Assembly (NCBI GenBank): GCA_019309485.1
Contig: JAFDGC010000005.1
Coordinates: 20,596-84,595 of the forward strand
From: Deltaproteobacteria bacterium
GTDB lineage: Bacteria > Desulfobacterota > Desulfobacteria > Desulfobacterales > UBA2156
Direction of reading: 5' to 3'
DNA: 64,000 nucleotides
Shown: one piece after another, positions 12,289 to 49,420 of the stretch
Layout of the letters: every line of letters begins with the position of its first letter
Position numbering within the stretch: position 1 is the stretch's first letter
Program-made: the position numbers and the translations under genes
Notes under the pieces: model-generated
Database searches by the model: none
Told to the model about the DNA's origin: nothing
Seen by the model: only the letters and a program-made list of their open reading frames with translations

Positions 12289-12445
12289 AACGCCTTCCCA
12301 TTATGATTTCATCTGTTACTTTTTTGTTCATCCATGCCCGTGAACGGATGAAACGAGATGTTGATTCTAGCCGATATCCATTTTATAGTAAAGAAAAAAC
12401 TGGGTCACCATCCGATCCCTGAAGATGCTCAAGAGACGACGCGAT

Positions 12446-13072
12446 ATGAAATATCCCTGCACCGGGGTAGTCCTGGCGGGCGGCCGGAATATCCGTTTCG
12501 GCGGTAAAAACAAAGCCTTTATCCCCATTTGCGGAAAAACGGTATTGGCCCACACCCTTGAGGCCTTTTCCGGTTTTTTTGAAGACATCCTTTTGGTGAC
12601 CAAGTCGCCATTGGATTATCTGGAGTATGATGTCGCCATTGCCGCCGACGTCTTTCCGGCGCCCGGTTCCCTGGCAGGGGTGCATGCGGGCTTGTTCTAT
12701 TCGGAAACGCCCTATGTCTTTTTTGCCGCCTGCGACACCCCCTTTTTAAAAAAGGAAATCATTCGACTGATACTGGATTCCATTGAAGACGGATGTGACG
12801 CCGTCATCCCGGAGACGGAAGCCGGGATGGAACCCTTGTGCGCGGTCTATTCCAAGGCGTGCCTTTCCCATGTGGAGCAGCACCTTCATCAGAACCGCCT
12901 TAAAATCACGCGGGTGTTTCAAAAAAAGCGTGTCGTCCGGATTCCCGAAGGGACGTTGCGGGAAAAGGATCCGGATCTGATTTCATTCATGAATATCAAC
13001 ACGCCCGACGACCTGGAGCGGGCGGCAATCGCCGTGGGACTGAAACCACCGGATTCCACGGATCTTTTATGA
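12446..13072 (+). CDS. mobA: Molybdenum cofactor guanylyltransferase
   Basis: MKYPCTGVVLAGGRNIRFGG..K N-terminal nucleotide-binding motif. I chose ATG at 12446 inside track ORF 12425..13072. Confidence 0.8.
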   Translation: MKYPCTGVVLAGGRNIRFGGKNKAFIPICGKTVLAHTLEAFSGFFEDILLVTKSPLDYLEYDVAIAADVFPAPGSLAGVHAGLFYSETPYVFFAACDTPFLKKEIIRLILDSIEDGCDAVIPETEAGMEPLCAVYSKACLSHVEQHLHQNRLKITRVFQKKRVVRIPEGTLREKDPDLISFMNINTPDDLERAAIAVGLKPPDSTDLL

Positions 13073-14874: not shown

Positions 14875-14920
14875 TCGAAAGGGCTGAAAAACCCTTGTTG
14901 GATTGCTTTTGGAGTCGTCG

Positions 14921-16849: not shown

Positions 16850-17283
16850 GAAACCCCGCGGCGACAAAATTGGGGTATCGCCTCCTGGATCACACCGCCG
16901 ATATGGGCATCGTTTTCTTCGGGCCCACGGTCAAGGCCCTTTACGAAGCTGCGGCAAAGGCCCTGGCGGATCTTTTGGTCGAAGGACCCGCCCCGGAAAA
17001 AGCGCAGCGCCTGTCCCTCGACATCGAAGGGGAAGACCGTGCCGATCTGATGGTCAACTGGTTGCGGGAGATTCTGTATCTTTGGGCGGCGAAAAGTCTT
17101 TGGCTCCTGGCGGCAAACGTCGAACACATCACTTTGAAACGCCTTTCGGCAACGGTTCGGGTGGCGCCTTATGATCCGACACACCAGAGGATCAAGACCG
17201 ATATCAAGGCCGTGACCTATCACCGGATCCAGGTCCGCCGGACAAAAGCCGGGTGGGAAGCGACCGTCATCTTCGACGTGTAA
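16846..17283 (+). CDS. Archease (RtcB activator family)
   Basis: YRLLDHTADMGIVFFG signature. The ATG overlaps the stop of the preceding moeA paralogue (ATGA). Confidence 0.85.
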   Translation: MRNPAATKLGYRLLDHTADMGIVFFGPTVKALYEAAAKALADLLVEGPAPEKAQRLSLDIEGEDRADLMVNWLREILYLWAAKSLWLLAANVEHITLKRLSATVRVAPYDPTHQRIKTDIKAVTYHRIQVRRTKAGWEATVIFDV

Positions 17284-17315
17284 CGCTCCTGCCGGACATC
17301 AAAAAGGAGGACCCC

Positions 17316-18755
17316 GTGGAAATAACGCCGAAACGAATCGATGCCTATCGCTGGGAAATCCCTGTCACAGGGAAGATGCGGGTGCCGGGAATCGTTTACG
17401 CCGACGACAGCATCCTGGAAGGCAAGGAACAAAACGAACCGCTCCAGCAGGTGGCCAACGTGGCTGCCTTGCCTGGGATCGTGAAGGCCTCCCTGGCCAT
17501 GCCGGACATCCATTGGGGATACGGTTTTCCCATCGGCGGGGTGGCCGCCTTCGACTGGGAGGAAGGCGTCATCTCCCCCGGGGGGGTGGGCTATGACATT
17601 AACTGCGGTGTGCGCCTGGCCACAACAACCCTCCTAAAAGGGGATATCGCAACCCGCCTCGAAGACCTGGTGAACGCCCTTTACCGGCATATTCCGTCAG
17701 GGGTGGGCTCCACGGGATCCATCCACCTCAGCGTGAACGAAGAGAAAAAAGTCCTCCGCCAGGGGAGCCGATGGGCCGTCTTCCAGGGTTACGGAGAAGC
17801 GGCGGACGTGGCGCATACGGAAGAAAAGGGGTGCATGGAAAACGCGGATCCGGACATGGTGAGCCAACGGGCCATGGAGCGGGGGCGAAAACAGCTAGGG
17901 ACCCTGGGATCCGGGAACCATTTTTTGGAAGTGGGATTCGTGGACACCGTTTACGATGAGACCGTGGCCAGGGCCTTCGGCCTTTTCGAGGGACAAGTCA
18001 CCCTGATTCTGCATTCCGGTTCCCGGGGTCTGGGATACCAGATCTGTGACGATTTTTTGGTGCGGATGACCAAATCTTCCAAAAAATATGCCTTTGATCT
18101 TCCGGACCGGCAGCTGGTCTGCGCCCCGTTGCGTTCGGAAGAAGGGACAGCGTACTTCAACGCCATGGCGTGTGCCGCCAACTATGCCTGGGCCAACCGG
18201 CAGATCCTGCTGCACCGATCCCGGGAAGTCTTTTACCGCGTGCTCGGTGTAAGCCCCCGGGATCTTGCCATGCACCTGGTTTATGATGTTTCCCATAACA
18301 TCGCCAAAAAGGAAACCCACGTCGTCGACGGCAAAAGCCGTGTGGTGTGCGTGCACCGGAAGGGGGCCACTCGATCCTTTCCCCCCGGTCATCCGGAGCT
18401 TTCTCCGGCCTACCGCGCGGTGGGCCAGCCCATTCTCATCCCCGGGGACATGGGGCGGGCCTCATTCGTCCTGGTGGGAACCCAGGCGGCCATGGAAGAG
18501 ACCTTCGGGTCCACCTGCCATGGGGCCGGCCGGGTCTTGAGCCGGAAGGCGGCCATGAAAAAAAGCAAGGGACGGTCCATCCAGCGGGAACTCGAAGACC
18601 AAGGAATCCTTGTGCGGTGGACCGGAAGAGGCACCCTTGCCGAAGAAATGCCCGAGGCCTACAAGGACGTCTCCAAGGTGGTGGAAGTGGTGCACGGCGC
18701 CGGCATTTCCAGGAAAGTCGCACGTTTGAAACCCCTGGCCGTGGTGAAAGGGTGA
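17316..18755 (+). CDS. rtcB: RNA-splicing ligase RtcB
   Basis: GGVGYDINCGVRL, GSGNHFLEV, HSGSRGLG and CHGAGR motifs. I chose GTG at 17316, after AAGGAGG. Confidence 0.9.
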   Translation: MEITPKRIDAYRWEIPVTGKMRVPGIVYADDSILEGKEQNEPLQQVANVAALPGIVKASLAMPDIHWGYGFPIGGVAAFDWEEGVISPGGVGYDINCGVRLATTTLLKGDIATRLEDLVNALYRHIPSGVGSTGSIHLSVNEEKKVLRQGSRWAVFQGYGEAADVAHTEEKGCMENADPDMVSQRAMERGRKQLGTLGSGNHFLEVGFVDTVYDETVARAFGLFEGQVTLILHSGSRGLGYQICDDFLVRMTKSSKKYAFDLPDRQLVCAPLRSEEGTAYFNAMACAANYAWANRQILLHRSREVFYRVLGVSPRDLAMHLVYDVSHNIAKKETHVVDGKSRVVCVHRKGATRSFPPGHPELSPAYRAVGQPILIPGDMGRASFVLVGTQAAMEETFGSTCHGAGRVLSRKAAMKKSKGRSIQRELEDQGILVRWTGRGTLAEEMPEAYKDVSKVVEVVHGAGISRKVARLKPLAVVKG

Positions 18756-31961: not shown

Positions 31962-32591
31962 TCAATCGGAACCGGTCGGGGAAACGTCTGCCAAAAACTT
32001 GCGAAAAGCCGCTTTCAGCGCCGTCAGGCGCCCGGAAAAGAAATGATCGGCGCCGGGAATGATGTCGAGGTCGGCATCCGGATTCCATGAAGGAAGCATT
32101 CGGCGGACGCGGTCCACGGGGGCGATGTCGTCCCGGTCTCCCACCACGACCCGTTGAAGGGTTTCCAGACCGGTGATCCCTTTAAAATTCATGAAGGCCA
32201 CCGGCGGGGCGATCATGTTCATCGTATCGATAAAAAGCCCCTTCATCACCGCCCGGGCATTGACCCACGCCCCGAAAGAGTATCCGCATAGATGAACCGT
32301 ATGGATGCCCGAATCTTTTAAAAACGAAACGGCGGCGGCCACATCCTCCTGTTCGCCGCTTCCCTCATCGTAGCGGCCTCGGCTTCCGCCCACACCCCTG
32401 AAGTTGAAGCGCAGGGTGGAAAATCCGCATTCTGTATACGCCCGGTGCGCCGCATCCACCACGGAATTATGCATGTCGCCACCGTACAAGGGGTGAGGAT
32501 GGGTGAGAACAACGCCGCGTGACCCGGGGTGTTTTTGCAGCAGGCCCTCCAGAGTATATCCGGCCGAAACAAATGAAACGGGGATTTCCAT
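31962..32591 (-). CDS. Alpha/beta hydrolase-fold protein
   Basis: MEIPVSF...VVLTHPHPLYGGDMHNSVV and nucleophile elbow LCGYSFGAW. I chose ATG at 32591, 11 nt after the hypD stop. The upstream part of track ORF 31962..32753 overlaps hypD. Confidence 0.65.
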   Translation of the reverse strand: MEIPVSFVSAGYTLEGLLQKHPGSRGVVLTHPHPLYGGDMHNSVVDAAHRAYTECGFSTLRFNFRGVGGSRGRYDEGSGEQEDVAAAVSFLKDSGIHTVHLCGYSFGAWVNARAVMKGLFIDTMNMIAPPVAFMNFKGITGLETLQRVVVGDRDDIAPVDRVRRMLPSWNPDADLDIIPGADHFFSGRLTALKAAFRKFLADVSPTGSD

Positions 32592-32602
32592 AACACCCTG
32601 AA

Positions 32603-33694
32603 TCAATCCATATGGTATCGATAATAGGCGGCACAGGTTCCTTCGCTGGAGACCATGCAGGGCCCGACGGGGTCCTCCGGGGTGCATCTTTTCCGGAATA
32701 ACGCGCACCGGGGCGGCGACAGCACGCCGGTCAAGACCTGGCCGCAGGCGCATCCCCTGGGAGGCGGGGATTCGGGAACCGTTACGGGGATCGCTTTCCG
32801 GGCATCGAAACGGGAAAAGGTTTCCCGAATTTTCAGCCCGCTTTTCGGGATGACGCCGATGCCGCGCCAGGCAGCGTCCTCGGGCTCGAAAACACGGTGC
32901 AGGATTCCCATGGCCTTCGGGTTTCCATCTTCCGTGACCACCCGGGAATAGGCGTTTTGAAGCGTCGCCGCACCGGCTTCCGCTTGGCGCACCAGCATGA
33001 GGATCCCCTGGAGGATGTCCGTGGGCTCGAATCCGCAGATCACGCCGGGAATCGGATGCGCTTCCATCACGGAAGTATAGGCCTTCGTTCCGATGATGAC
33101 CGACACATGTCCCGGGAGGAGAAAACCGTCGATCTTGACCGCCTCGCTTTCAAGGAGCGCCTCAAGGGCGGGCGGCACCTGTTTGTGGGCTGCAACCACA
33201 AAGAAATTTTTGGTCTTTTGTTTTTCGGCCTCAAGAATCACGGCGGCCACCGTGGGCGCCGTGGTCTCGAATCCCACGCCGAGAAAGACAACCTTCCGAC
33301 CGGGGTTTTTCACGGCGATCTCAAGGGCGTCCAGTGGGGAATAGACCACCCGGATGTCCCGTCCGTTTGCACGTTCCTGCTGAAGAGAAGTATGGGTTCC
33401 GGGAACCCGCATCAGGTCCCCGAAGGTGGTGATGATGACATCCTCTTCCCGGGCCATGGCCAAAAAGGTGTCGATCTCTTCCTGGGCGGTGACGCACACC
33501 GGACACCCCGGGCCCGAAATGAGGCGGATGGTCTCCGGAAGAAGGGACCGGATGCCGGTTCTGAATACGGCCATGGTATGCGTGCCGCAGACCTCCATGA
33601 GGCGGATGGGATGCCGGCTTTCCCGGCGGATCTGTTGGAGGAGATGTTCGGCCAGTCCAGCGTTTTCGAACCCCTGAATGTCTTTTTTGTCCAT
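32603..33694 (-). CDS. hypD: Hydrogenase formation protein HypD
   Basis: MEVCGTHT, GPGCPVCV, GFETTAP and PGHVS motifs. Confidence 0.9.
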   Translation of the reverse strand: MDKKDIQGFENAGLAEHLLQQIRRESRHPIRLMEVCGTHTMAVFRTGIRSLLPETIRLISGPGCPVCVTAQEEIDTFLAMAREEDVIITTFGDLMRVPGTHTSLQQERANGRDIRVVYSPLDALEIAVKNPGRKVVFLGVGFETTAPTVAAVILEAEKQKTKNFFVVAAHKQVPPALEALLESEAVKIDGFLLPGHVSVIIGTKAYTSVMEAHPIPGVICGFEPTDILQGILMLVRQAEAGAATLQNAYSRVVTEDGNPKAMGILHRVFEPEDAAWRGIGVIPKSGLKIRETFSRFDARKAIPVTVPESPPPRGCACGQVLTGVLSPPRCALFRKRCTPEDPVGPCMVSSEGTCAAYYRYHMD

Positions 33695-33707: not shown

Positions 33708-35993
33708 CTAAGATTTCACGGTGGCAGCGGCCACCAGCGCCTGGCCCAAGGCGATGCCGCCGTCATTGGCGGGCACCTGGGAGTGGGTATACACTTCAAA
33801 CCCGTACCGGGTCAACGCATCGACAAACCCTTTCAGAAGAATGGCGTTCTGGAAAACCCCCCCGCTGAGGGCCGCCCGGCGAATGCCCGTCTCCTCGGCA
33901 ACGGTCCGGCACACCTGGGTGAACATTTCGATCACCGTGGCGTGAAATTTTCCGCTGATGCGATGAGACGGCATTCCGTCCATCAGGTCCCGGACGATCC
34001 CTTCAATGATGGGGGCGGTAGGAATCCGGATGGGAATCTCCGGAGTCCACGGGCAGACATAGGTCTCGCGGGTGTTTTCATCGGCGATCATTTCCAGGGC
34101 CATGGCCGCCTGTCCTTCGAAACGCACCCGTTGCCTTACGCCCAAAATGGCGGCCACGCCGTCGAAAAGCCTTCCCAAACTGGAGGTAACAGGGGATTGG
34201 ATTCCCCGTTGCATCATCCGGACAACGATTCCCATGGCCTTGGGATCCATCGGGTTTAAGGAGGGAATTTTTTGAAAGTCGAACGCCGGCCCGAACGCGG
34301 CGGTAAGGTAGCTCAGCGCCATGCGCCAGGGCTCCCGGATGGCGGCCTCCCCCCCGGGCAGGGGAACCGGCTCCAGGAATGCCATGCGCTGAAACGCCCG
34401 TTCATCGGCCAATAGAATTTCCCCGCCCCAGATGGTTCCGTCCGGTCCGTACCCGGTGCCGTCAAAGGCCAGCCCGATAACCGAACCCTGAATCCGATTT
34501 TCGGCCATGCAACTGACGATATGGGCATGGTGATGCTGCACTGCCATTCGTTTTTCGGTCTTTCGCGCTTCCAGGGCCCAACGGGTGCTCAGATAGTCCG
34601 GATGCAGGTCGTGGACCACGATCCCGGGGCGGATATCCAGAATGCGTTCCAGGTGGGATACGGTCTGTTGGAAAAAGGCTTCAGTGGACGGGTTGTCCAG
34701 ATCCCCGATGTGCTGGCTCAAAAAGGCCTGGTTTTTCTTTGTCAAACAGACAGTGGATTTCAGTTCGGCGCCGCAGGCCAATACCGGCGGCGCATCGATT
34801 TTCAAAAAGATGGGCCGGGGAACAAATCCCCGGGACCGCCGAAGCATCCTGACCGCACCGGCGGTATGCCGCACGATGGAGTCGTCACTGCGCAGATAGA
34901 TATCCCGGTCGTGGATGAGGAAATAATCGGCGATCTCTTTCAGGCGGCTAAAGGCCTCTTCATTGTCGATGGCGATGGGTTCTTCGCTGAGATTCCCGCT
35001 GGTCATGACCAGGGCCGTGAAGCCGTTTTCCAGCAGGAGGTGGTGCAGGGGTGTATACGGGAGCATCACGCCGAAGTATTTGTTTTCCGGAGAAACGGCC
35101 GCCGCCAAGGGGTTCGGTTGTTTTTTTTCCAGCAAAACGATGGGCCGCTGCATTGAGGTCAGCAGGGGGCGTTCTTCAGGGCGCACCATCGCAAAGGCGA
35201 CGATGTGTTCCAGGTCCTTTGCCATCACCGCAAAGGGCTTTTCTTCGCGGCGCTTTTGTTTTCTCAGCCGCATCACCGCTTCATCCAAAACCGCATCCGC
35301 CGCCAAATGAAATCCCCCGAGCCCTTTGACGGCCACAATGGCGCCTTGTTTCAGAAGGGAAACCGTATCCCGGATCGGATCCTCCGAAGGCATCCGGCGC
35401 CCCTTTTCATCATGTAAAAACACATGGGGACCGCAGGCCGGGCAGGCGTTGGGCTGGGCATGAAACCGCCGGTCCTCAGGATCTTCGTATTCGGCCCGAC
35501 ACTTTTCGCACATAACGAAATGTTTCATGGATGTGTTGGGCCGATCGTAGGGAATGTCGTCGATAATGGTATACCGGGGACCGCAATGTGTGCAGTTGAT
35601 AAACGGATACCGGTACCGCCGGTCCCCGGGGGTAAAGAGTTCCTTCAGACAGGCATCACAAACGGCCACATCCGGGGAAATCAACGCAGATTTGCGGGAT
35701 TCGGGACGGCTCGACGCGATGGTAAAAGCGGTGCAGCCGTTCAATGTCCCTTTCGAAACAACAATCCGGGTGATGTGGGAAAGGGGAGGCGCTTTTTCGG
35801 AAAGTTCCTTGATGAAAGCCAAAACGCCTTCGGATTTTCCCTCCAGATGGATAAACACGCCGTCGGCCGTATTGGCGACTTCACCGCAAAGCGCCCGGCG
35901 GCGGGCCAATTGAAAGACAAAGGGCCGGAATCCAACTCCCTGGACGATCCCTTCCACGGTGATGTCCAGGGACAGGCGATTCTTTTCCATCAA
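33708..35993 (-). CDS. hypF: Carbamoyltransferase HypF
   Basis: Acylphosphatase-like N-terminus (VQGVGFRPFV), two zinc-finger CxxC pairs (CDACLKE, CTHCGPRY, CEKCRAEY, CPACGP), and YrdC and Kae1-like domains. Confidence 0.92.
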   Translation of the reverse strand: MMEKNRLSLDITVEGIVQGVGFRPFVFQLARRRALCGEVANTADGVFIHLEGKSEGVLAFIKELSEKAPPLSHITRIVVSKGTLNGCTAFTIASSRPESRKSALISPDVAVCDACLKELFTPGDRRYRYPFINCTHCGPRYTIIDDIPYDRPNTSMKHFVMCEKCRAEYEDPEDRRFHAQPNACPACGPHVFLHDEKGRRMPSEDPIRDTVSLLKQGAIVAVKGLGGFHLAADAVLDEAVMRLRKQKRREEKPFAVMAKDLEHIVAFAMVRPEERPLLTSMQRPIVLLEKKQPNPLAAAVSPENKYFGVMLPYTPLHHLLLENGFTALVMTSGNLSEEPIAIDNEEAFSRLKEIADYFLIHDRDIYLRSDDSIVRHTAGAVRMLRRSRGFVPRPIFLKIDAPPVLACGAELKSTVCLTKKNQAFLSQHIGDLDNPSTEAFFQQTVSHLERILDIRPGIVVHDLHPDYLSTRWALEARKTEKRMAVQHHHAHIVSCMAENRIQGSVIGLAFDGTGYGPDGTIWGGEILLADERAFQRMAFLEPVPLPGGEAAIREPWRMALSYLTAAFGPAFDFQKIPSLNPMDPKAMGIVVRMMQRGIQSPVTSSLGRLFDGVAAILGVRQRVRFEGQAAMALEMIADENTRETYVCPWTPEIPIRIPTAPIIEGIVRDLMDGMPSHRISGKFHATVIEMFTQVCRTVAEETGIRRAALSGGVFQNAILLKGFVDALTRYGFEVYTHSQVPANDGGIALGQALVAAATVKS

Positions 35994-36020: not shown

Positions 36021-36260
36021 CTATTCCCCACCGCTTTCCCCTTCCACCAGGGCAAGGGATTCCCGCAACATCTCCAGGGTTTCCCGGGCAGCTGTTTCGT
36101 CGATCTTTTGGATGGCGAATCCGGCATGCACGATGACCCAATCCCCCACACGGGGGGCATCCAGGAGCAACAGGCTTGCTTTTCTCTTGACACCGTCCAC
36201 ATCCAGGACCGCCATTTCATTTTCGATGGCGACAATCTTCGAAGGGATCGCAAGGCACAT
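36021..36260 (-). CDS. hypC: Hydrogenase assembly chaperone HypC/HupF
   Basis: It starts MCLAIPSKIV, with the essential Cys2. The upstream 9 codons of track ORF 36021..36287 were rejected. Confidence 0.85.
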   Translation of the reverse strand: MCLAIPSKIVAIENEMAVLDVDGVKRKASLLLLDAPRVGDWVIVHAGFAIQKIDETAARETLEMLRESLALVEGESGGE

Positions 36261-36759
36261 GGGTTGTCCTTTTCTTAAAAGAAACATTCAGACGCCGCAG
36301 TTCGTCAAGGACCCGATCCGCCATGGGTGCCACCTGATTCGCCGTGGCAGGGGTCAATTGAACGCTCAGGGTTTCGATATCGGCCGGTTCCACGCCCAGG
36401 ATCACGGTTTCGGGAACCGGCGAATCCAGTGCTTGACACAGGGTGAGGGCTTCGAGGAAGTCGACTTGGTGCAATGAATTCTTGGCCCGTACCCGTTCGG
36501 GAATCGCGTCGCCTTCCAGGCGGTAAAAGGTGCCCGGTTCCCCGTGATTCCGCACGGCATCGCACACGATGAGATGATCCGCTTCGGAAATCACCCCCAA
36601 GAGATTCAACCCCAGCACCCCCCCGTCCACCAGGGAGACGTTTTCCGGAAACTCATAGCGCTCCATCAGATGCTGGATCACGCGCACCCCGAAGCCTTCG
36701 TCGGCAAAAAGGAGGTTCCCGATACCCAGGATCATGACATGGGGCTTTTTCATGGACAA
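36217..36759 (-). CDS. [NiFe]-hydrogenase maturation endopeptidase (HyaD/HybD family)
   Basis: ILGIGNLLFADEGFGVRV...VDGG...DAV...SLHQV motifs. The 3' end overlaps the hypC start by 44 nt. Confidence 0.8.
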   Translation of the reverse strand: MSMKKPHVMILGIGNLLFADEGFGVRVIQHLMERYEFPENVSLVDGGVLGLNLLGVISEADHLIVCDAVRNHGEPGTFYRLEGDAIPERVRAKNSLHQVDFLEALTLCQALDSPVPETVILGVEPADIETLSVQLTPATANQVAPMADRVLDELRRLNVSFKKRTTHVPCDPFEDCRHRK

Positions 36760-36901: not shown

Positions 36902-39900
36902 CTAGGAGGACCACTGCACGGTTTCCTCGCTTGTCTCGGCCTTTTCCAGCGCATTTCTGGCCTGATCGATCAAGAGGGCCTCCTGGTTTTCGGCATTCAT
37001 TCGTCCGCCGGCGACTCCAAAAACCATTTCCGCGGCAATGCCTTCTTTTTCCCGCACTTTTCTTTCAAAACGGGTTTGAATACGCAGGCACGTTTCCCGG
37101 GAAACCGCTGCGGAGGACCCCATGAGCACCAGTCCGAAAAGCTGTCCGTCGAGGCGTCCCACCACATCGCTTCTGCGAATGGTTTCCACAATAATACGGC
37201 CTGCGATCTTCATAAACCGCTCACCGGCGGAAAAATCATTTGGGGAACCTGCGGCGCCCTCAAATCGAATTTTTGCAAGGCACAGGGATAACGGTAATTG
37301 ATGCCTGACGGCCAGATGAAACTGCCTGTGGAGGGCTTCAAAGAACCCTCTTGGATTGAAAACGCCGCTTTCTTCATCGATGAAGCAATCGGCAGTATAG
37401 CACTGGCTGATGTGTTCCAGCCGGTCACACAGAATGGAGACTAAGTTGTGAAAAAATTTATGGGCCGTGTTGGGATACAAAAACTGCAAGCGACGGATCA
37501 TTTTCCAGTTGATCTGGAGGAGTTCTCCTTCCGAGGCGGCCACCACGGTGGCCGAACGCGGCGCATTCCGAAAAAGCCCCATCTCCCCCACCACATCCCC
37601 CACCCGGATATGGCTGATGATAATATCGCCGCCGTATTTTCCGTTCATTGTGTCGGCCATGGGATTCACCACATCCAGGCCTCCGGAAATGACGGCATAC
37701 ATGAAATCGCTTTGTTCCCCTTTTCTAAAGATCACCTCCCCCGATTGAAAGGGCTTCAGGGATCCGGCCAAAAAGATATGATGGATCCGGGAGCGGGACA
37801 GATTACTGAACAAGGGGATTCCCTCCTGGGGATCTTTTCCCAATTTGAGTCGGAGCAGATCCCACAGGGTCACCAGTTCCACATGGAGCATCAGAGAAGG
37901 GAGTAGCAACAGGTCTCCCACCAAAGCGGAGGCCATGGTGATCAACATGAGAAAGCCGAATAAAGCGGTGGGCTTGAAGTTGGACGCCATCAGGATGGAG
38001 AACCCGGCGCTGATGGTGACGGTGGTAAAGACAATGGAACGCCCCACCTTTTTGAGGGTCTCGGCAAGGGCGGTTTCATCGTCCAAGCATTTTTTGAACT
38101 CCCGGTTGAAACAGACCAGATAATGGATCGTATCATCCACCGCCAAACCGATGGCGATGCTGGCAATCAGGCTGGTGGCGGCGGAAAGCGGGATTCCCAG
38201 CCACCCCATGATGCCGAAGTTCACCACGATGGGAAACAGGTTGGGGACAATGGCGATCAATCCCACCTTGAAGGATAAAAACAGGAGGAACATCAGGGAA
38301 AAGATCAGGACCATGCTGATGGAAAGGCTCTTGACCTGTCCCCGGGTCAGGATGTCGCTGGATGCCGCCACCACCATTCCGATACCGGTCACTTCGGCCG
38401 TGAGGGTCTTGGGGCAATATTCTTTCACAAGATCGTGGATTCGGTTTTGGATTTCGAGAAACTCCCGCGAACTCGACAAATGGGTCAACAACATGAGGTT
38501 GGCTTTGGAAAAATCACGACTCATAAACCCGTAGAGCATGTCTTCCCCGAACATGATCTTGTAATTGTTCAAGAGCATCCTTACTTCAAAGCCTTCTTCG
38601 GGGAGGGCATAATATTTCGGATCGAAATGATTGATGGCATAATTGACCAGCTTCATGTAGTCGGCAAAAGAAACGCTTTTGTCCACTCCCGGAAGGGTCT
38701 CTAAAGCCCTTTGGACGCGTTCGATTTCCTTGAGCATCTTTGGATCTTCAAAGGCATCTTCTTCTTTTGCGGACAGGGACACATGGACCGGGAAGCTCCC
38801 GGACAGGTGTCGCGCGATATCGTGAAAGTGCCGACTGACCGGCGCGTCCTCTTTGAAAAACTCCACCGGATTGGTTTCCACCTTCACGCGGAATATGCCG
38901 ATGATGCAAAACAGGGCGACGCCTCCCAGTATGGGCAGCGACACCCTTTGCCGATGGATGTTGACATGCGCAATCCAATTGCAGAATCGAACCGCCGCCT
39001 GTGCCGCCCGGGTGCTTTTGAGGCGTCCTCCGCCGCGTCCGGGCACGAGGGCGAAGGCTGCGGGCAAAAAGGTCAGGGCCAGAACCATGAGGACGAGGAT
39101 CCCCGTGCAGGCGAAAAGGGCAAACTCTCGGATGGCCTGTATCCGGTTTACGAAAAGGGAGGCAAGGGCCGCCACCGTGGTAAACACCGCCACCACGGTG
39201 GGGAGCGTCATGGTCGAAAAGGTGGCCAGGGCCGCCGCCGTGGGAGACGGAAACCGGTTCAGCCCCTCGTTGAACTCCGATGTAATATGGAGGCAGTAGG
39301 CGGTCCCCACGGCGATGAGAAAGATCGGGACAATCATGGTGAGCATGGACAGCGGCACCTGGAGCATGGCCATGAGGCCGAAGGTCCAGATCATGGCGAT
39401 GAGCACACAGGCCAGGGGAATGAGCATGATCCGGACGGTGGGGTACAAAAAAAAGAGGATCACGGTCATGACGGCCAGGGTGATGGGGGGAAGGAGATAG
39501 AAATCCTTCTGTGTATAGCGTGTCAGGGCATCGGAAACCACGGGCATACCGATCTGATAAAGGGTCAGATCCTCGGGAGCCCCGGCGATATACTTTTCCA
39601 CCGAACGGATCACGGCTGCCTCATCGGCATCCGGGTGCAACACCAGGGTCACCGCGGTTGCATGGCGGTCCGATGAGAGGAGGTTCTTTTCAAAAAGGGC
39701 GATTGGTGAAAGCACCGCGGCGAAGCGCTCCAGATCCCACGCACCACCGGTTTCCACCGCCGCCTTGATTTCTGGAAGGCTGATGACGCGGCGCACCCCC
39801 AAAACGGCCTTCAGGTCCGTGGAGATTCTATTGATTTTTTCAAAGGTTTTCGGATAAAGGACGTTTTTCCCCTTGATGACGACCCGGATAATTTCATCCG

Positions 39901-40114
39901 AGCCGAAGAGTGTGCGAAACGCCGCATAGGTCCGGGTTTCCGGGAGATTCTCCACCACCATATCGTAAATAGAGGTGCGGATTTTCAATCCGGGAATCTG
40001 CCACGCAAAAAAGAGGGTGATCAGGGCCAACAGGAGCAAGGTGGCTTTGGGACGGTACAGGATCGATTCGACGCCGTGCTGGTATAGGCGGCCCGGGGCA
40101 AATCGGCTGGCCAT
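36902..40114 (-). CDS. RND-superfamily/MMPL-type transporter fused to a cyclic-nucleotide-binding domain and a degenerate GGDEF domain
   Basis: 1070 aa. Residues ~1-770 have two 6-TM bundles with large loops (MMPL/HpnN-like). Next comes a CAP-type cNMP domain (FRKGEQSDFMYAVISGGL...GEMGLFRNAPRSATVVA). Last comes a GGDEF-like domain in which the signature reads RLDGQLF instead of RxGGDEF. Confidence 0.8.
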   Translation of the reverse strand: MASRFAPGRLYQHGVESILYRPKATLLLLALITLFFAWQIPGLKIRTSIYDMVVENLPETRTYAAFRTLFGSDEIIRVVIKGKNVLYPKTFEKINRISTDLKAVLGVRRVISLPEIKAAVETGGAWDLERFAAVLSPIALFEKNLLSSDRHATAVTLVLHPDADEAAVIRSVEKYIAGAPEDLTLYQIGMPVVSDALTRYTQKDFYLLPPITLAVMTVILFFLYPTVRIMLIPLACVLIAMIWTFGLMAMLQVPLSMLTMIVPIFLIAVGTAYCLHITSEFNEGLNRFPSPTAAALATFSTMTLPTVVAVFTTVAALASLFVNRIQAIREFALFACTGILVLMVLALTFLPAAFALVPGRGGGRLKSTRAAQAAVRFCNWIAHVNIHRQRVSLPILGGVALFCIIGIFRVKVETNPVEFFKEDAPVSRHFHDIARHLSGSFPVHVSLSAKEEDAFEDPKMLKEIERVQRALETLPGVDKSVSFADYMKLVNYAINHFDPKYYALPEEGFEVRMLLNNYKIMFGEDMLYGFMSRDFSKANLMLLTHLSSSREFLEIQNRIHDLVKEYCPKTLTAEVTGIGMVVAASSDILTRGQVKSLSISMVLIFSLMFLLFLSFKVGLIAIVPNLFPIVVNFGIMGWLGIPLSAATSLIASIAIGLAVDDTIHYLVCFNREFKKCLDDETALAETLKKVGRSIVFTTVTISAGFSILMASNFKPTALFGFLMLITMASALVGDLLLLPSLMLHVELVTLWDLLRLKLGKDPQEGIPLFSNLSRSRIHHIFLAGSLKPFQSGEVIFRKGEQSDFMYAVISGGLDVVNPMADTMNGKYGGDIIISHIRVGDVVGEMGLFRNAPRSATVVAASEGELLQINWKMIRRLQFLYPNTAHKFFHNLVSILCDRLEHISQCYTADCFIDEESGVFNPRGFFEALHRQFHLAVRHQLPLSLCLAKIRFEGAAGSPNDFSAGERFMKIAGRIIVETIRRSDVVGRLDGQLFGLVLMGSSAAVSRETCLRIQTRFERKVREKEGIAAEMVFGVAGGRMNAENQEALLIDQARNALEKAETSEETVQWSS

Positions 40115-40317: not shown

Positions 40318-41970
40318 TTACAAGGCCTTGACGGTGTACACCTGGTTCGAATCGGGATCGATGACGTGGACACCGCAGGCGATGCACGGATCAAAAGAAT
40401 GCACGGTCCGCAAGACCTCCAGGGGTTGCTTGGGATCGGCCACAGGTGTGCCGATGAGGGCCTCCTCCACGGGGCCCATCTTGTTGTTTTCGCAGCGGGG
40501 TCCGAGGTTCCAGGTGGACGGGACCACATACTGGTAATTCTTGATCTTCTTGTCTTCGATGCGGACCCAGTGCCCCAGAGCTCCCCTCGGGACGTCGTTG
40601 AGACCGAGACCTATTGCTTCTCCCGCGGGCCAGTCCCAGGCCTGATAGGTCTTGGTGTCGCCGTTTTTCACGTTTTCCACAAGCTGCATGATCCATCCTT
40701 CCATGGCCTTCCCGATGGTCAGGGTTTCCAACCCACGGGCTGCGGTCCGGCCCAGGGTGGAAAAAAGCGCCGTCACCGGGATACCCAGCTTCTGGCAGGT
40801 CTGGTCCACCACGGGCTTGAGATCGGCGTGCCCTTTGGCATAGGCCACCAGGACCCGGGCCAGGGGACCCACCTCACAGGATTCGTTTTCATACCGGGGA
40901 GCTTTTAACCAGGAATACTTCCCGTCGTCCGGCTTGTAGGTGGGATTCTCCTGGAGCGGTTTGGTTTCTCCTTTGTACGGATGCTTGGGGGGACCGTCCG
41001 TATACCATGAACGCTTGACATGCTCGGTGACCCCCTCCTGCATGGCCATGGCCGTATTCGCCAGGTCCCGTTTTTTAATGACCCCCCGGGGCATATACAG
41101 GCTTTCCGGCTCACTGGCCGTTTCCGGGAAATCCCCCCAGGCCAAAAAGTTTTGGGTCCCGCCGATGGCGCCCCAATCCTTGTAAAAGGAGGCCACGGCG
41201 ACAAGGTCCGGGATGTAGACGTTTTCGATGAAATTCTGAGTTTCCTTCCAGATATAGAGGAACTCGGCTATGCGATCCGGCGTCAGATCCGCCACGCAGG
41301 TGACGCCTCCCACCACCAGGGACTGGAGGTGCGGGTTCTTGGCGCCGAAAATGGCGTGGAGGCGGGCTGCCCGGGCCTGGATGCGCAGGGCCTCCACATA
41401 GTGAGCCGCAGCCATGAGGTTGGCCTCCGGAGGAAGTTTGTACGCGGGATGCCCCCAGTAGGCATTGGCAAAAGGCCCCAGCTGGCCGCTTTCCACAAAG
41501 GTTCTCAGCCGCTCCTGGACGGATTTGAAATAGACGGCGCCTCCCATTTGGGCGTTGCTCACATTATCGGCGAGCGCGGCCGTGGCCTTGGGATCAGCCT
41601 TCAGGGCGCTCACCACGTCCACCCAGTCCAGGGCGTGCAGATGATAAAAGTGGACGAGATGATCGTGCTGGAACTGGGCGCCGTGGAGGAGATTGCGGAT
41701 GATCCGGGCGTTGTCGGGAATTTTTACCTTGACCGCATCTTCGACTGCCCTCACCGAGGACAGGGCATGGGTCAGCGTTCAGACCCCGCAGGAGCGCTGG
41801 ACAAAATGATGGGCATCCCGGGGATCCCGGCCCAAAAGGATCAATTCGATTCCGCGAAACATCTGGCCGCTGCTCCAGGCATTGACGACTTTGCCGCCGG
41901 AGACTTCCACTTCAATTCTCAAGTGCCCTTCTATTCTTGTGATCGGATCGATGGTGACTCTTTTTCCCAT
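40318..41970 (-). CDS. Periplasmic [NiFe]-hydrogenase large subunit with an in-frame UGA (41779..41781) at the second Cys of the RxCGxC motif. This is a possible selenocysteine, or else a nonsense lesion.
   Basis: Track ORFs 41779..41970 and 40318..41754 are in the same frame. Read-through gives [16 protein letters not shown]...[24 protein letters not shown]...[26 protein letters not shown], i.e. the N- and C-terminal Ni ligand motifs plus the C-terminal extension that the maturation protease removes. Confidence 0.85.
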
Positions 41971-42028: not shown

Positions 42029-42973
42029 TTACATTTCCTGGTAAAACGGTGTCATCTTATCCCAAAAGTCGGGTTCGCTGCACCCGATGCACGGATGCCC
42101 GGCTTCGATGGGGAAGCTGGTGCCTTCGTTGAACTTGGCGATGGGGCAGTTGTTGAATGTCTCCGGACCTCTGCAGCCCATCTTGTACAGGCAATACCCC
42201 ATGGCCGCCTCCGGCGACCCGAACTCCGTAACGAATTCCTCATTTTCAAAGTGGGACCGTCTCGGACACTGATCGTGAATCGTCTTGCCGTAAGCAAAAA
42301 GGGGCCGGCCCAGATCATCCAGGGCCGGGAGTTTTCCCAAAAGGAGGAAATTGACGAGGGTGCCGACAAAATTCACCGGGTTGGGGGGACATCCGGGGAG
42401 ATTGACCGTCTTGATCCCAAGGGCGTCTCCGACGCCTTTGTATCCGCCCGGATTCGGCTTGGCGGCCTGAATCCCCCCGAAGGATGAACAGGATCCGATG
42501 CAGATCACCGCGGCGGCCTTGCTGCAGACGTCTTTTCCCATGTCCAGGAAGCTGCGGCCGCCGATCTTTCCGTAGCCACCGTCGAACTTGGTGGCGATGG
42601 CCCCTTCCACCACGCAGATGAATTTACCCTCGTATTTCTTCATCGCGGCGTGAAGCTGGTCTTCCGCCTGCTGTCCCGCCGCGGCCATGACGGTTTCATG
42701 GTATTCCAAGGACAATACTTCCAATACCAGATCGTCGATGTACGGATAGTGGGAGCGCAGGACCGCCTCGGAACATCCGGTACACTCGGCGAAATGGAGC
42801 CAGATCACGGGCGGCCGCTGTTTGGGTGCCGCAAAAACCTCCGCCACCTTGGGGACATACGCGGCGGAAAGCCCCATGGTGGCGGTGAGAAAGGTGCAAT
42901 ACCGCATGAAATCCCTTCGGGTCACGCCCTTGCCTTCCATCCGTTCGTAGAATGCGTTTTGTTCCTTGTCCAT
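42029..42973 (-). CDS. Periplasmic [NiFe]-hydrogenase small subunit (Tat signal)
   Basis: MDKEQ...GVTRRDFMRYC twin-arginine signal, then WLHFAECTGCSEA, GSCSSFGG and GHPCIGCSEPDFWD. ATG 42973 follows AAGGAGGTG. The longer track ORF start (43117) was rejected. Confidence 0.9.
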   Translation of the reverse strand: MDKEQNAFYERMEGKGVTRRDFMRYCTFLTATMGLSAAYVPKVAEVFAAPKQRPPVIWLHFAECTGCSEAVLRSHYPYIDDLVLEVLSLEYHETVMAAAGQQAEDQLHAAMKKYEGKFICVVEGAIATKFDGGYGKIGGRSFLDMGKDVCSKAAAVICIGSCSSFGGIQAAKPNPGGYKGVGDALGIKTVNLPGCPPNPVNFVGTLVNFLLLGKLPALDDLGRPLFAYGKTIHDQCPRRSHFENEEFVTEFGSPEAAMGYCLYKMGCRGPETFNNCPIAKFNEGTSFPIEAGHPCIGCSEPDFWDKMTPFYQEM

Positions 42974-45132: not shown

Positions 45133-48100
45133 TTAGATTTTAGCGATGTTGACCATGAAGGCCTTGGTTTCCGGGATCCGGGTGTTGGCATCTCCGGTGG
45201 ACGGCGTCAGGAGATTGGCGCTGTCTTCTTTTCCGGTCTCTGGCCATCGCCAGCCGAAGTTGTACGGGAAGCCCACCTGATGGACGACGGTCCCGGCGAT
45301 CTTGAGCGGCTTGATCCGTTTGGTCACAACGGCCGTGCATTCCAGGGAACCCCGGGCCGTCTTGGCCAGGACCCGCTCTCCGTTCTTGATCCCCTTGAGA
45401 TCGGCCAACTCTTCGCTCATCTCCACGAAGACGCCACGGCTGAGGCCGGGTCATGAGGCCTGTCTGCCAGTGTTCGGACACCCGGTAGGTGGTCCCCACA
45501 TAGGGGTATCGCGGATCGTACGTGGCAAAGGCGTCGGCGTCTCCCCTGAATACCGGCGCCGCGGGATTGATGCGCTGGGCATTCATCAGGTTCTTTTCCA
45601 CCGGGCATTCCAGTGGCTCATAGTGTTCCGGGAAAGGACCTTCCGCCAGCCCGGGACCGTATATCTGGGCATGGCCGTGCTTGCGCATGATGAAGGCCCA
45701 CTTGCTCTTGGGGTTGGGATTGTCGAGGCTGTCCAGGGGCGGCCATCCGCCGTCGGGAACGTCCCCGATCCACTTGTCCCCGGTCCATCGGATCACCCAG
45801 TGGTTCTTATCCCAGGGTTGCCCCTTGAGATCCACCGAAGCGCGGTTGTAAATGATGCGGCGGTTCACCGGCCAGCACCAGGAAAACTCCGGATAGAGGC
45901 CGATGCCGTTCACCGCATCCCTTTGACCCCTGCGGGTCGCCATATTCCCTTTTTCCGTGTAACTGTTGCAGTAGAGCCAGTTTGCGGAAGACGTGGATCC
46001 GTCGGCCTGGAGAAAGGCAAAGCTGGGAACCAGTGTGCCTTTCTTGTACTTCTTGCCTTTTATGGTGACGTCTTTTAGGAAATATCCGTTGATTTCTTTT
46101 GCCACCTTGTGCGGATCGTATTTGCCGTCGGTGACGTAATCCCACTTGAGGTTTTGAATGGGTTCCGGGAAAACGCCCCCGGCTTTATAGTGTTCCCGGA
46201 TTTTTAGGAACAACTCGACGAGGATATCCCCGTCGGGGCGGCTGTTTCCCATGGGCTTGGGGCCCTGATAGCGCCACTGCATCCAGCGGCCCGAGTTGGT
46301 GATGGATCCTTCCTTTTCCACGGAGACCGCCGCCGGCAGCATGAAGACCTCGGTCTTGATCTGTGCCGGATCCACCCCCGGACCCTTCCAGAATGAACCC
46401 GTCTCGTTGTCGAAGAGGTTGACGTTCACCAGCCAGTCCAGTTTGGTCAGGGCGGCACGCGTTTTCGACGAATTGGCCCCGCTGCAGGCCGGATTCTGGC
46501 CCCAGGCGAAGAACCCTTTGATTTTCCCGTCGTACATGGCATCGAACAGATCGAGCCAGGAATAGGGAACCCCGTCATCCACTTTGGGCAGCCAGTCATA
46601 TCCGAACGCGTTTTTCGGTGTTGCCGCCTCCCCGAAAAAGGACTTCAAAAGACTCACCGAATATTTGGGATAGTTTTGCCACCAGTTGGCGGAAAGCGGA
46701 TCCTTGCTTGCCGGGGTGTAGTGCTTGTTATAGGCATCCAGGGACACATCCGAAGCCCGCGGCGTCTTGAGATATCCCGGCCAGATGTGCCACAGGAGGC
46801 AATGGTCCGTGGATCCTTGCACGTTGGATTCACCTCGAAGGGCGTTTACCCCGCCGCCGGCGACCCCCATATTTCCGAGCAGCAACTGGATAATGGCCAT
46901 GGTGCGGATGTTCTGGGTTCCAACGGTATGCTGGGTCCATCCCATGGCGTACATGATGGTGCCGGCCTTTCCCGTTGCACCGGTGGCGCCGTAAGTCTTG
47001 TAGATTTTCTTGAGATCCTCTTGGGAGATCCCGGTGATTTGGGAGACCTTGTCCGGAGTATACCGGCTGTAGTGTTTCTTAAGAAGCTGAAAGACGCATC
47101 TCGGCTCCTTCAGCGTCCGATCCATCTTGGGAACGCCGTTGGCATCCATCTCGAAGGCCCAGCTCTTCTTGTCGTATTTTCGGGTTTCCTTGTTGTAGCC
47201 GGAAAAAAGCCCGTCTTCGAAGGAAAATTCCTTCCCCACGATGAATGGGGCATTCGTGTATGCCGCCACATAGGCTTCATTATACAACCGGTTGTCGATG
47301 ATGTATTTGATCATGCCGCCCAGAAAGGCAATATCGGTCCCCGATCGGATCTGGGCGAAGAGATCCGCCTTGGACGACGTTCGGGTGAACCGGGGGTCCA
47401 CGCTGATGAGGGAGGCCCCGTTCTTCTGGGCCTCGGTGACGTACTTGAAAGAGATGGGGTGATTTTCGGCGGCGTTGCTGCCGCAGATCAAAATACAGTC
47501 ACTGTTCTTGATATCGATCCAGTGATTGGTCATTGCGCCGCGTCCGAACGACTCTGCCAGAGCCGCAACCGTGGCGCTGTGTCAGATACGGGCCTGGTGC
47601 TCGATGTAGACCAACCCCAGGGCGCGCATCATGGCCTGCAGGATCCAGCACTCCTCGTTGTCCAGGGCCGCGCTCCCCACGGAGGCAATGGCCGTGGTCC
47701 GGTTGACCGTTTGGCCTTTGGCGTTTTTCGCCTCAAATGTGGCGTCCCGGGTGGCCTTGACCCGCTTCGCAATTTCTTCCAGGGCCCAGTCCCAGGAAAC
47801 GGGCTTCCATTCCTTGGAATTGGGCGCCCGGTACATGGGCTCCAGCAGTCGGTTTTTGTTTTCCACCAACTGTTTCAGGGCCGCTCCCTTGGAACACAAG
47901 GCGCCCCGGTTGATGACATGGTCCGGATCCCCTTCGATGTTGATGGCCCGGCCGGCGCCGCTTTTGTCCGTATGAACGATGGCCCCGCACCCTACGGCGC
48001 AGTAAGGACAGATGGTGATGGTCTCCTTGGCATACACGGTCTTGAGCATCTGGGCGTGGGACTTGACCGGTGAAAGATCAAAACCCACGCCGCTCACCGC

Positions 48101-48157
48101 AAGACCCGCTGCCGTCGCACCGGTAATCTGGATGAACTCTCGGCGTGAAACGTTCAT
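45133..48157 (-). CDS. Periplasmic formate dehydrogenase alpha subunit (molybdo/tungstopterin, Sec-containing). As given, the reading frame is broken near 45433.
   Basis: Tat signal MNVSRREFIQITGATAAGLAV after GGAGGGAGG. The 4Fe-4S motif is CPYCAVGCG. An in-frame TGA at 47582..47584 reads EHQARI-U-HSATVAALAESFGRGAMTNHW. The true C-terminal domain (VFVEMSEELADLKGIKNGERV...AFMVNIAKI) is track ORF 45133..45426, in a different frame from the body (45140..47533). Confidence 0.85.
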
Positions 48158-48287
48158 AAGCCCTCCCTCCTTGATTGATGAATGTTCACCGGCCGCGGAT
48201 GCCGCCGGTAAAAGTCTTTCTCCGGATGAAGACCTCGAAACTTCCGATGGCCGCCATGCGTCCTCCCCCCGCAAGCAGCAATTTTGA

Positions 48288-48402
48288 TGACCGGAGAGCT
48301 TCCCGCAAGCCCCGCCTTTTAAGGCGAGATCGAGGGAAGCCCTCAAAAAACAGGTGATTTCCTTACCAGGGAGCCCCGCCCTTCAGGGCGGGAGGGCTCC
48401 AC
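48288..48402 (-). repeat. Two-hairpin GC-rich element, full-length copy, starting 1 nt after the moaA stop within the ~245-nt fdhA leader
   Basis: Minus strand: GUGGAGCCCUCCCGCCCUGAAGGGCGGGGCUCC...GGCUUCCCUCGAUCUCGCCUUAAAAGGCGGGGCUUGCGGGAAGCUCUCCGGUCA. It is collinear with 13106..13219(+). Confidence 0.75.
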
Positions 48403-48403
48403 T

Positions 48404-49420
48404 TCATCCGCCGATGGCGGACATGGGATCCAAGACGTCGCAGTTTTTCATGCAACCCAGTCCGTGTTCATGGGGCTTTCTTAAGACGGCCTGGGCCATG
48501 ATCCGGCCAATATCCGCATCGCTGGCGCCGCTTCTCATGGGCCCCTTGAGGTCTTCTTGAACACTGGACAGCAGACAGACACGCAACCGACCGCTTGCGG
48601 TCAGTCTCAACCGGTTGCAATCATGACAGAAGTGATGGCTGATGGGTCGAATAAGCCCGATCTCCCCGGCCGCTCCGGCAAAACGGTACCGCTCCGCCGG
48701 CCCGTCATTTTTATTTCTGAGGATCGGTTCCAATGGGCCCATCTTTTCTAGGGTGTGCAGGATTTCCGGTGCAAGGAGTTGCTGACGGATATTCATACAA
48801 TGGGTCCCCATGGGCATATACTCGATAAACCGTATAAAAAAGGGCTCTTTCATGGAAAGGCGGGCGAAATCGATCAACTCGTCCTCATTGAGACCGCGGA
48901 TGACCACCACATTGAGTTTGATGGGATAAAACCCTGCTTCGAGGGCAGATCGAATCCCTCTCCATACGGCGTCGAAACGATCGAACCCGGTAATTTTTTC
49001 ATATTTATTCCGATTCAGGGTGTCCAGGCTGACGTTGATGCGATGAATGCCCGCATCCAGGATGCGCTCGATTTTTTCCGCCAAGAGCACACCGTTGGTG
49101 GTCAGAGAAATATCCTCGAGGCCTTCTATACCCCCCAGCGCCTTTAAAAACGCATAGACGCCTTTTCGCACCAGCGGTTCACCGCCGGTGACACGGACCT
49201 TGGAAATCCCCAACCTAACGGCGATTTTCACGATCCTGAGGATTTCCTCGTAACGCAGGATCTCTGCGTGGGGGAGCTTGGGGAAAAAGACATCCGGTAC
49301 ACAGTAGGTACACCGGAGATTACACCGGTCGGTGATGGAAAGGCGGAGATAATTGAGCCGCCGGTTGAAGCGATCGATCAGGCCTTTCCCGGGCAACTCC
49401 ATAGTCGATTCAACCGGCAC
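48404..49420 (-). CDS. moaA: GTP 3',8-cyclase MoaA (radical SAM)
   Basis: LRLSITDRCNLRCTYC radical-SAM motif, and a C-terminal cluster CHDCNRLRLTASGRLRVC. GTG start after AAAGGAG. Confidence 0.9.
   Translation of the reverse strand: MPVESTMELPGKGLIDRFNRRLNYLRLSITDRCNLRCTYCVPDVFFPKLPHAEILRYEEILRIVKIAVRLGISKVRVTGGEPLVRKGVYAFLKALGGIEGLEDISLTTNGVLLAEKIERILDAGIHRINVSLDTLNRNKYEKITGFDRFDAVWRGIRSALEAGFYPIKLNVVVIRGLNEDELIDFARLSMKEPFFIRFIEYMPMGTHCMNIRQQLLAPEILHTLEKMGPLEPILRNKNDGPAERYRFAGAAGEIGLIRPISHHFCHDCNRLRLTASGRLRVCLLSSVQEDLKGPMRSGASDADIGRIMAQAVLRKPHEHGLGCMKNCDVLDPMSAIGG

Follow-up and report, generated by a model that had tools for sequence, protein, structure and literature searches.

A probable selenocysteine codon at the nickel–iron bridging position of a Group 1 [NiFe]-hydrogenase from a desulfobacterial contig, with relatives in other genomes

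Introduction

To our knowledge, the textbook [NiFeSe] hydrogenases all carry selenocysteine (Sec) as a terminal ligand of the nickel, in the C-terminal motif of the large subunit, and the high activity and O2 resilience of these enzymes have been explained through that terminal position. That explanation could be tested on another ligand in a natural enzyme whose selenium bridges nickel and iron. Here we describe a candidate for such an enzyme, encoded by a hynB-like hydrogenase large-subunit gene within a stretch of 64,000 nucleotides (hereafter the window; positions 20,596 to 84,595 of contig JAFDGC010000005.1, assembly GCA_019309485.1) from a deltaproteobacterium of the order Desulfobacterales. 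Codon 64 of the gene is a UGA that we consider very probably to be a genuine Sec codon, and neither the mark of a pseudogene nor an error; the product is most likely a periplasmic, uptake-type Group 1 hydrogenase with a bridging selenolate in its active site.

The canonical [NiFeSe] hydrogenases of Group 1a, such as HysAB of Desulfovibrio vulgaris Hildenborough and the enzyme of Desulfomicrobium baculatum, would share with the window enzyme a periplasmic location, membership of Group 1, a single Sec ligand to the nickel, recoding by way of UGA and a selenocysteine insertion sequence (SECIS), and anaerobic hosts of the sulfate-reducer type. They differ in the ligand concerned, because their Sec is terminal and lies in the C-terminal motif DPUxxC, whereas the window enzyme has DPCIAC there; the latter has no C-terminal Sec and does not cluster with Hys or the D. 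baculatum enzyme. Its nearest solved relatives, similar over their full length, are instead the HynAB enzymes of D. vulgaris Miyazaki F, D. gigas and D. fructosovorans (Group 1b). These have in common with it a small subunit with a twin-arginine translocation (Tat) signal, the motif DPCIACGVH and a cleaved C-terminal extension, but they carry Cys at the bridging position (QRTCGVCTYTH), where the window gene has UGA.

The original prediction placed the Sec of the known [NiFeSe] enzymes in the C-terminal motif, but a Sec in the N-terminal motif is not without precedent: according to Takano et al. 2026 (PMC13582414), two sequences of Group 1 and one of Group 3 bearing CXXU at the N-terminal site had already been reported, in silico, by Baltazar et al. 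2011 (Eur J Inorg Chem). As far as that report conveys them, those sequences likewise have Sec as the last residue of the N-terminal motif (CXXU for CXXC), at the predicted Ni–Fe bridge, and were identified in silico only; the difference lies in the at least 120 species-level genomes and three enzyme backbones found here, far beyond 'two sequences'. The window enzyme has the features of this N-terminal CXXU type of [NiFeSe] hydrogenase. The placement is therefore not new in kind, although its breadth is much larger than the accessible literature states. Evans et al. 2021 (PMC8020662) call natural examples of bridging Sec 'purported', naming C579 rather than C79.

N-terminal motifs of the forms CXXU, UXXC and UXXU have also been described for the Group 4 [NiFeSe] hydrogenases (Takano et al. 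2026, PMC13582414), which resemble the present case in having an N-terminal Sec, a SECIS directly downstream within the coding sequence and a G in the first two loop positions, as well as an interleaving of Sec and Cys types and SECIS-like remnants in some Cys-type relatives. The Group 4 enzymes are, however, membrane-bound, energy-converting and multisubunit, whereas the window encodes a Group 1 enzyme of two subunits that is predicted to reach the periplasm by Tat export. An engineered counterpart with Sec at the equivalent ligand position is the C79U variant of Escherichia coli Hyd-1, in which the latter Cys of the N-terminal motif was replaced; it retained 13% of the native H2-oxidation activity, the highest of four Sec variants, and showed a lower Michaelis constant (KM) for H2 but was almost inactive in 10% O2 (PMC8020662). 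That engineered variant has so far been the only means of testing selenium in the bridge; it is artificial, being made by a UAG/EF-Tu route on the O2-tolerant Group 1d enzyme, and its behaviour may not be that of natural enzymes. No N-terminal Sec is mentioned in papers on Desulfococcus multivorans or on the evolution of the [NiFeSe] cavity, and literature matches to the phrase 'bridging selenocysteine' were irrelevant; no natural bridging-Sec enzyme appears to have been biochemically characterized.

Results and Discussion

One large-subunit gene containing a single UGA

The large-subunit frame opens with an ATG at 41970 and runs through 63 sense codons ending in ...QRSCGV; beyond the UGA a further 486 codons follow in frame before a TAA stop at 40320..40318, and the UGA (41781..41779) is the sole in-frame stop inside the gene. 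Both fragments match consecutive parts of the Pfam family NiFeSe_Hases (PF00374), the 63-residue N-terminal piece at profile positions 1-25 and the part after the UGA at positions 36-508 (E 5.4e-198), and they are therefore halves of one gene, in agreement with the earlier claim that two minus-strand open reading frames (ORFs) form one frame split by a TGA. TGA is an ordinary stop for 23 of the 41 ORFs in the window, and a genome-wide reassignment of the codon is therefore not the explanation. The coordinates of this and the other features are given in Table 1.

Table 1. Features of the hydrogenase locus and its surroundings (window coordinates).
Feature	Position	Strand	Details	Basis
hynB-like [NiFe]-hydrogenase large subunit	40318..41970	-	550 codons, one UGA predicted to be read through (Sec64)	Translation, Pfam, structure matches
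UGA codon 64, second Cys of RxCGxC, Ni–Fe bridging ligand position	41779..41781	-		Translation, alignment, conservation
Putative SECIS core	41745..41763	-	8-bp stem CUGUCCUC/GAGGGCAG, GGU triloop	RNA folding, comparison
Predicted lower stem around the SECIS core	41730..41774	-	Folds inconsistently in relatives	Folding prediction only
C-terminal Ni-binding motif DPCIACGVH	40366..40392	-	Residues 527-535, Cys not Sec	Translation
hynA-like small subunit	42029..42973	-	314 aa, twin-arginine signal TRRDFMRY	Pfam Oxidored_q6 and NiFe_hyd_SSU_C
Hydrogenase maturation endopeptidase (HycI/HybD family)	36217..36759	-		Pfam HycI, E 5.8e-33
hypC	36021..36260	-	79 aa, MCLAIPSKIV...	Translation, same gene order in relative L244
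hypF	33708..35993	-		Pfam HypF domains
hypD	32603..33694	-		Pfam HypD, E 5e-154
fdhA, formate dehydrogenase catalytic subunit	45140..48346	-	UGA 47584..47582, hairpin 47566..47548	Translation, RNA folding, Rfam

When the D. vulgaris Miyazaki enzyme is aligned, its motif QRTCGVCTYTH has the latter of its two Cys opposite the UGA, which confirms the assignment of the codon to the second Cys of RxCGxC; by the alignment offset, this residue is Cys84 of that enzyme and Cys68 of D. gigas, established from structures as one of the two thiolates that bridge Ni and Fe. A Cys stands at the same position in more than 100 other relatives besides P0001 and P0003. The metal-ligand residues of the product would be C61-G-V-U64 on the N-terminal side and C529 and C532, in DPCIAC, on the C-terminal side, the translation having upheld the original statement that the C-terminal motif keeps its Cys. 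The mature chains in the PDB align up to His535, and the 15-residue tail that follows this residue would be cut off by a maturation protease. The locus thus presents the features of a Group 1 large subunit, namely the family signature, both motifs, a Tat small subunit, Group 1 relatives and an extension accompanied by a protease and Hyp proteins.

The original prediction also held that neither a start codon nor a Shine–Dalgarno sequence exists downstream of the UGA. The latter part stands, none being obvious, but the former does not: a GTG at 41754, 24 nucleotides past the UGA, is chosen as the start by ORF finders and gene callers (giving, for example, the relative P0002), and genes of this kind are split by gene callers into pieces of 63 and roughly 478 residues. 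Translation might accordingly stop at the UGA and restart at this GTG, and the 63- and 478-residue polypeptides might then assemble. This seems very unlikely, because the essential second metal ligand and the eight residues after it (TLTHALSS) would be in neither piece, because the GTG, besides having no Shine–Dalgarno sequence, lies inside the loop and stem of the hairpin described below, and because other clades have no start codon there, yet retain both the TGA and a hairpin.

A hairpin conserved in Sec-type genes

RNA folding placed a hairpin 15 nucleotides past the UGA, the form given in Table 1 being both that of lowest energy and the conserved one. Its GGU loop occupies nucleotides 27-29, counted from the U of the UGA, so that 23 nucleotides separate the UGA from the loop. 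The fdhA gene of the same window is built in the same way: its UGA lies, as originally predicted, in the context ...EHQARI-U-HS..., the canonical Sec position of formate dehydrogenases, and is followed by a hairpin with an 8-bp stem and a GGC triloop that again occupies nucleotides 27-29. The fdhA hairpin scored 31.7 bits (E 3.9e-4) against the Rfam family SECIS_3, below the gathering score of 63. A UGA at this site with a putative SECIS behind it shows that Sec decoding is, to all appearances, operating in the organism.

The bacterial consensus of Zhang and Gladyshev 2005 is said to have the apical loop at about 16-37 nucleotides from the UGA, with a G in the first two loop positions, and the hydrogenase hairpin agrees with it both in the distance of the loop and in the position of the G. 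The rule of a G within the first two positions of the SECIS loop is also stated by Takano et al. 2026 (PMC13582414).

The original prediction of a plausible SECIS is borne out as regards the hairpin itself, but not its register, which had been drawn as GCCCU/AGGGC around a 10-nucleotide loop; the true stem is CUGUCCUC/GAGGGCAG, closed by GGU. The GCCCU/AGGGC pairing is broken in many relatives with the TGA, in which codon +5 varies freely.

Comparison of genes having TGA at the bridging position (Sec type) with those having a Cys codon (Cys type) argues for conservation at the level of the RNA. In 70 unique Sec-type sequences from the window's clade, codons +7 to +11 (S-S-V-R-A) were always TCC TCG GTG AGG GCA, and the codon entropy was 0 over these five codons, as against 1.3-2.4 bits at flanking codons of 4- and 6-fold degeneracy. 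Five Cys-type relatives encode the same SSVRA peptide, all with other codon choices. The eight stem pairs were formed in 99.3% of cells in 67 Sec-type sequences, compared with 35-38% for the same columns in Cys-type sequences, and compensatory changes were seen among the Sec-type genes, the outer pair passing from C-G to U-A or U.G and the fourth pair from U.G to G.U or A-U. Counting as SECIS-like any hairpin with a stem of at least 5 bp and a loop of 3-8 nucleotides that starts at nucleotide 20-34 and has a G in its first two positions, we found one in 103 of 109 Sec-type but only 14 of 115 Cys-type sequences (Fisher p = 6.5e-40). Clades other than that of the window have different hairpins at the same place.

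Three Cys-type genes (L133, L244 and L245) have a degraded copy of the Sec-type hairpin at codons +6 to +11, an example being CTG TCT TCG GTA AGG GCC, with the rare Arg codon AGG. The likeness suggests that these degraded hairpins may be remnants of a SECIS, left by reversion from Sec to Cys in those lineages.

Selection on the frame beyond the UGA

A protein search returned relatives of 75-89% identity that were nearly all full-length Cys-type enzymes, together with two nearer relatives that appeared as N-terminally truncated products, P0002 (96% amino acid identity) and P0055 (93%). These two are encoded on contigs (L001 and L002) drawn from other samples, in one case a Logan run and in the other a JGI metagenome; each contig again has the 63-residue ORF and the TGA, and its hairpin is identical to that of the window, amid many synonymous differences. 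The orthologue comparison originally proposed has thus gone in favour of the Sec assignment, since the TGA recurs, in these two contigs and in at least 120 genome loci, and the hairpin covaries.

The ratio of nonsynonymous to synonymous substitution rates (dN/dS) over the 486 codons past the UGA was 0.03-0.10, at dS values of 0.2-1.3, in comparisons with the Sec-type relatives L001, L002, L005 and L023 (L086, which differs by indels and was left unaligned, is omitted from this set), and it matches the ratio for the 63 codons before the UGA. The downstream frame is under strong purifying selection.

These values bear directly on the possibility that the gene is a pseudogene, in which a nonsense mutation has turned TGC or TGT into TGA and from which a 63-residue fragment, or nothing, is made. 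TGA is indeed the only stop one step away from a Cys codon, and gene callers do split the gene. However, selection of this strength on the downstream codons, the recurrence of the same TGA across at least 120 species-level genomes, whose frames are for the most part intact, and a hairpin that is particular to TGA-bearing genes and conserved at synonymous sites make such decay highly improbable. More improbable still is an error of sequencing or assembly that reads TGA for TGC or TGT. It is a generic concern for any single window, with nothing specific in its favour here, and set against it are the identical codon in independent assemblies of other samples and at the at least 120 genome loci, and a choice of codons in the hairpin that is not shared by Cys-type genes.

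In the window's clade (50 Sec-type and 119 Cys-type sequences), a search for residues co-varying with Sec or Cys gave no column with a frequency difference above 0.5, and there is accordingly no visible second-sphere adaptation to Sec in these alignments.

Distribution across genomes and enzyme backbones

In a scan of one genome per GTDB species, using a DNA pattern for P-R-D-A-x4-[QE]-R-x-C-G-x followed by TGA, at least 120 loci had TGA at the codon of the bridging Cys. Among the matches listed, 79 of 120 remain open for 415-510 codons to DPCxxC and a stop, and 26 run off the available sequence; expressed for the assessable loci listed, the frame stays open to DPCxxC in 79 of 94. The hosts among the matches listed include many Desulfobacterales, as well as Desulfobacca, Thermodesulfovibrionales/Nitrospirota, Chloroflexota, Rokubacteria, Nitrospinaceae, Syntrophomonas and Desulforudis (Bacillota), so that the carriers comprise at least 120 species-level genomes from at least five phyla, a taxonomic breadth that is taken from record titles and should be read with care. 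When TGA, TGC and TGT were all allowed in a scan of metagenomes, 8 of the 120 matches listed (about 7%) had TGA, in a sample that is neither random nor complete.

Two metagenome-assembled genomes that serve as species representatives, titled 'delta proteobacterium' (L036) and 'Nitrospinaceae' (L037), are identical in sequence around the hydrogenase UGA, which may reflect a problem of binning or labelling, or a recent transfer.

The best structure matches for the window's clade are the enzymes of D. vulgaris Miyazaki, D. fructosovorans and D. gigas (E 1e-211 to 1e-202), whereas the window enzyme matches the canonical [NiFeSe] Hys structures only at E 1e-99 to 1e-95 and in two stretches. Its backbone therefore resembles the standard Desulfovibrio type, 1b-like, and not the canonical [NiFeSe] type, the subgroup being assigned by similarity to PDB enzymes and not by HydDB. 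A second clade, from Desulforudis and Syntrophomonas, is closest to the canonical [NiFeSe] Hys (1e-146) and is 1a-like, with its Sec at the N-terminal site (CXXU) and a Cys at the C-terminal one (DPCIAC); it looks as if Sec had moved between ligand positions on the 1a backbone. The members of this Bacillota clade are L034, L080, L043, L046, L049, L065, L097, L112 and L114, and the isolate Desulforudis sp. Tu-874 (NZ_CP187479.1) has two copies (L034 and L080) that are identical around the UGA. A Sec-type clade from Nitrospirota is closest to E. coli Hyd-2 (1e-234) and is Hyd-2/1c-like. Judged by these similarities, predicted Sec at the bridging position is found on three Group 1 backbones, 1a-, 1b- and 1c-like.

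Sec-type (84) and Cys-type (184) sequences are intermingled on a neighbour-joining tree, in which 28 clades consist purely of the Sec type and Fitch parsimony requires 25 or more changes between Sec and Cys; the latter count comes from a quick tree with uneven sampling and gives the order of magnitude only.

Weighing the Sec assignment

We favour Sec at UGA 64 because the TGA is conserved, the frame downstream is under selection, the hairpin is conserved at the RNA level and fdhA points to the use of Sec in the same organism; the assignment is supported by every one of the sequence-based tests that were run. Several observations nevertheless weigh against it. The hydrogenase hairpin matched no Rfam family; neither selA, selB, selC nor selD was found within the 64-kb window, in which an ARAGORN search for tRNA genes returned only two, both tRNA-Ser; and 15 of the 120 loci listed are interrupted further downstream, some of which may be decaying copies or may reflect indel errors of assembly. 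In Hyd-1, the C79U exchange lowered both activity and O2 tolerance relative to the native form, so that any benefit of Sec at this site is hypothetical, and the evidence for Sec is comparative, drawn from sequences throughout.

The most serious alternative reading of the codon is that the UGA is decoded as Cys by a selC-like tRNA of the tRNA-ReC type, using the same SECIS and SelB route, in which case the enzyme would be an ordinary all-Cys hydrogenase. Takano et al. 2026 (PMC13582414) raise this caveat for UGA codons in hydrogenase motifs, and the window does not reveal which tRNA reads UGA 64. We nevertheless think it unlikely: the fdhA UGA of the same window is at a canonical Sec position, such tRNAs are described as accompanying tRNA-Sec but not replacing it (PMC13582414), and it would be surprising if over 100 species kept a costly UGA and SECIS for no more than the insertion of Cys.

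If UGA 64 is a Sec codon, the hairpin 15 nucleotides beyond it would act as a bacterial SECIS, bringing SelB-GTP-Sec-tRNASec to the ribosome, and translation would continue for 486 codons past the UGA. Insertion of Fe(CN)2CO and Ni, dependent on the Hyp proteins, would then be followed by cleavage after His535 by the neighbouring protease. With Sec64 in the place of the N-terminal bridging Cys, the active site would be Ni(mu-Se-Sec64)(mu-S-Cys)Fe, with two further Cys thiolates as terminal ligands on the Ni. We infer the dependence on SelB, the incorporation of selenium, the bridging geometry and the catalytic consequence from these comparisons.

It seems to us an evenly balanced proposition that N-terminal CXXU Sec marks a large, overlooked class of Group 1 enzymes, repeatedly gained or lost, in which a mu-selenolate is postulated to be of catalytic advantage to strict anaerobes; such an advantage might concern the affinity for H2 or the stability of the bridge, and would be unlike the one that terminal Sec confers in canonical enzymes. 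As gene callers split Sec-type genes, surveys of hydrogenases made from called proteins misclassify or drop them, which amounts to a systematic gap in annotation. The present locus, having a well-studied Desulfovibrio-type backbone and maturation genes nearby, is a practical candidate for expression, spectroscopy and crystallography.

Neighbouring genes

In canonical [NiFeSe] hydrogenases, the small subunit has, at the medial [4Fe-4S] cluster, a Cys where standard enzymes have Pro. The small subunit of the window reads ...SFPIEAGHPCIGC, with Pro, which may be the counterpart of the diagnostic residue reportedly studied as P238 of D. fructosovorans.

The maturation protease, hypC, hypF and hypD follow hynB on the same strand, beyond an inserted gene (36902-40114, minus strand) for a 1070-residue fusion of an MMPL/RND-like transporter with cyclic-nucleotide-binding and GGDEF diguanylate cyclase domains. 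This gene sits between hynB and the protease gene, and a large gene is likewise found there in L001 and L002. We take the N-terminal signature MCLAIP as identifying the product of the 79-codon gene as HypC. The hyp cluster (31962-33694, minus strand) ends after hypD, the next ORF being alpha/beta-hydrolase-like and not hypE, and neither hypA nor hypB was found near the cluster in the window; the remaining maturation genes must therefore be elsewhere in the genome.

The gene order moaA, fdhA, fdhB, fdhE-like, hynA, hynB is also present on one of the two relative contigs. Two predicted periplasmic selenoenzymes, one for formate and one for H2, thus adjoin in the window, an arrangement kept in L002. 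The window further contains a set of genes for Mo/W cofactor synthesis (13618-16849 and 12425-13072, plus strand; 11246-11749 and 48404-49420, minus strand), comprising moaA, two moeA paralogues, a mobA-like gene and a mogA/MoCF-type gene; one of the moeA paralogues carries a PBP-like oxyanion-binding domain as a fusion. The neighbouring formate dehydrogenase is the presumed recipient of the cofactor. A pair of genes for archease and the RNA ligase RtcB lies at 16846-18755 on the plus strand.

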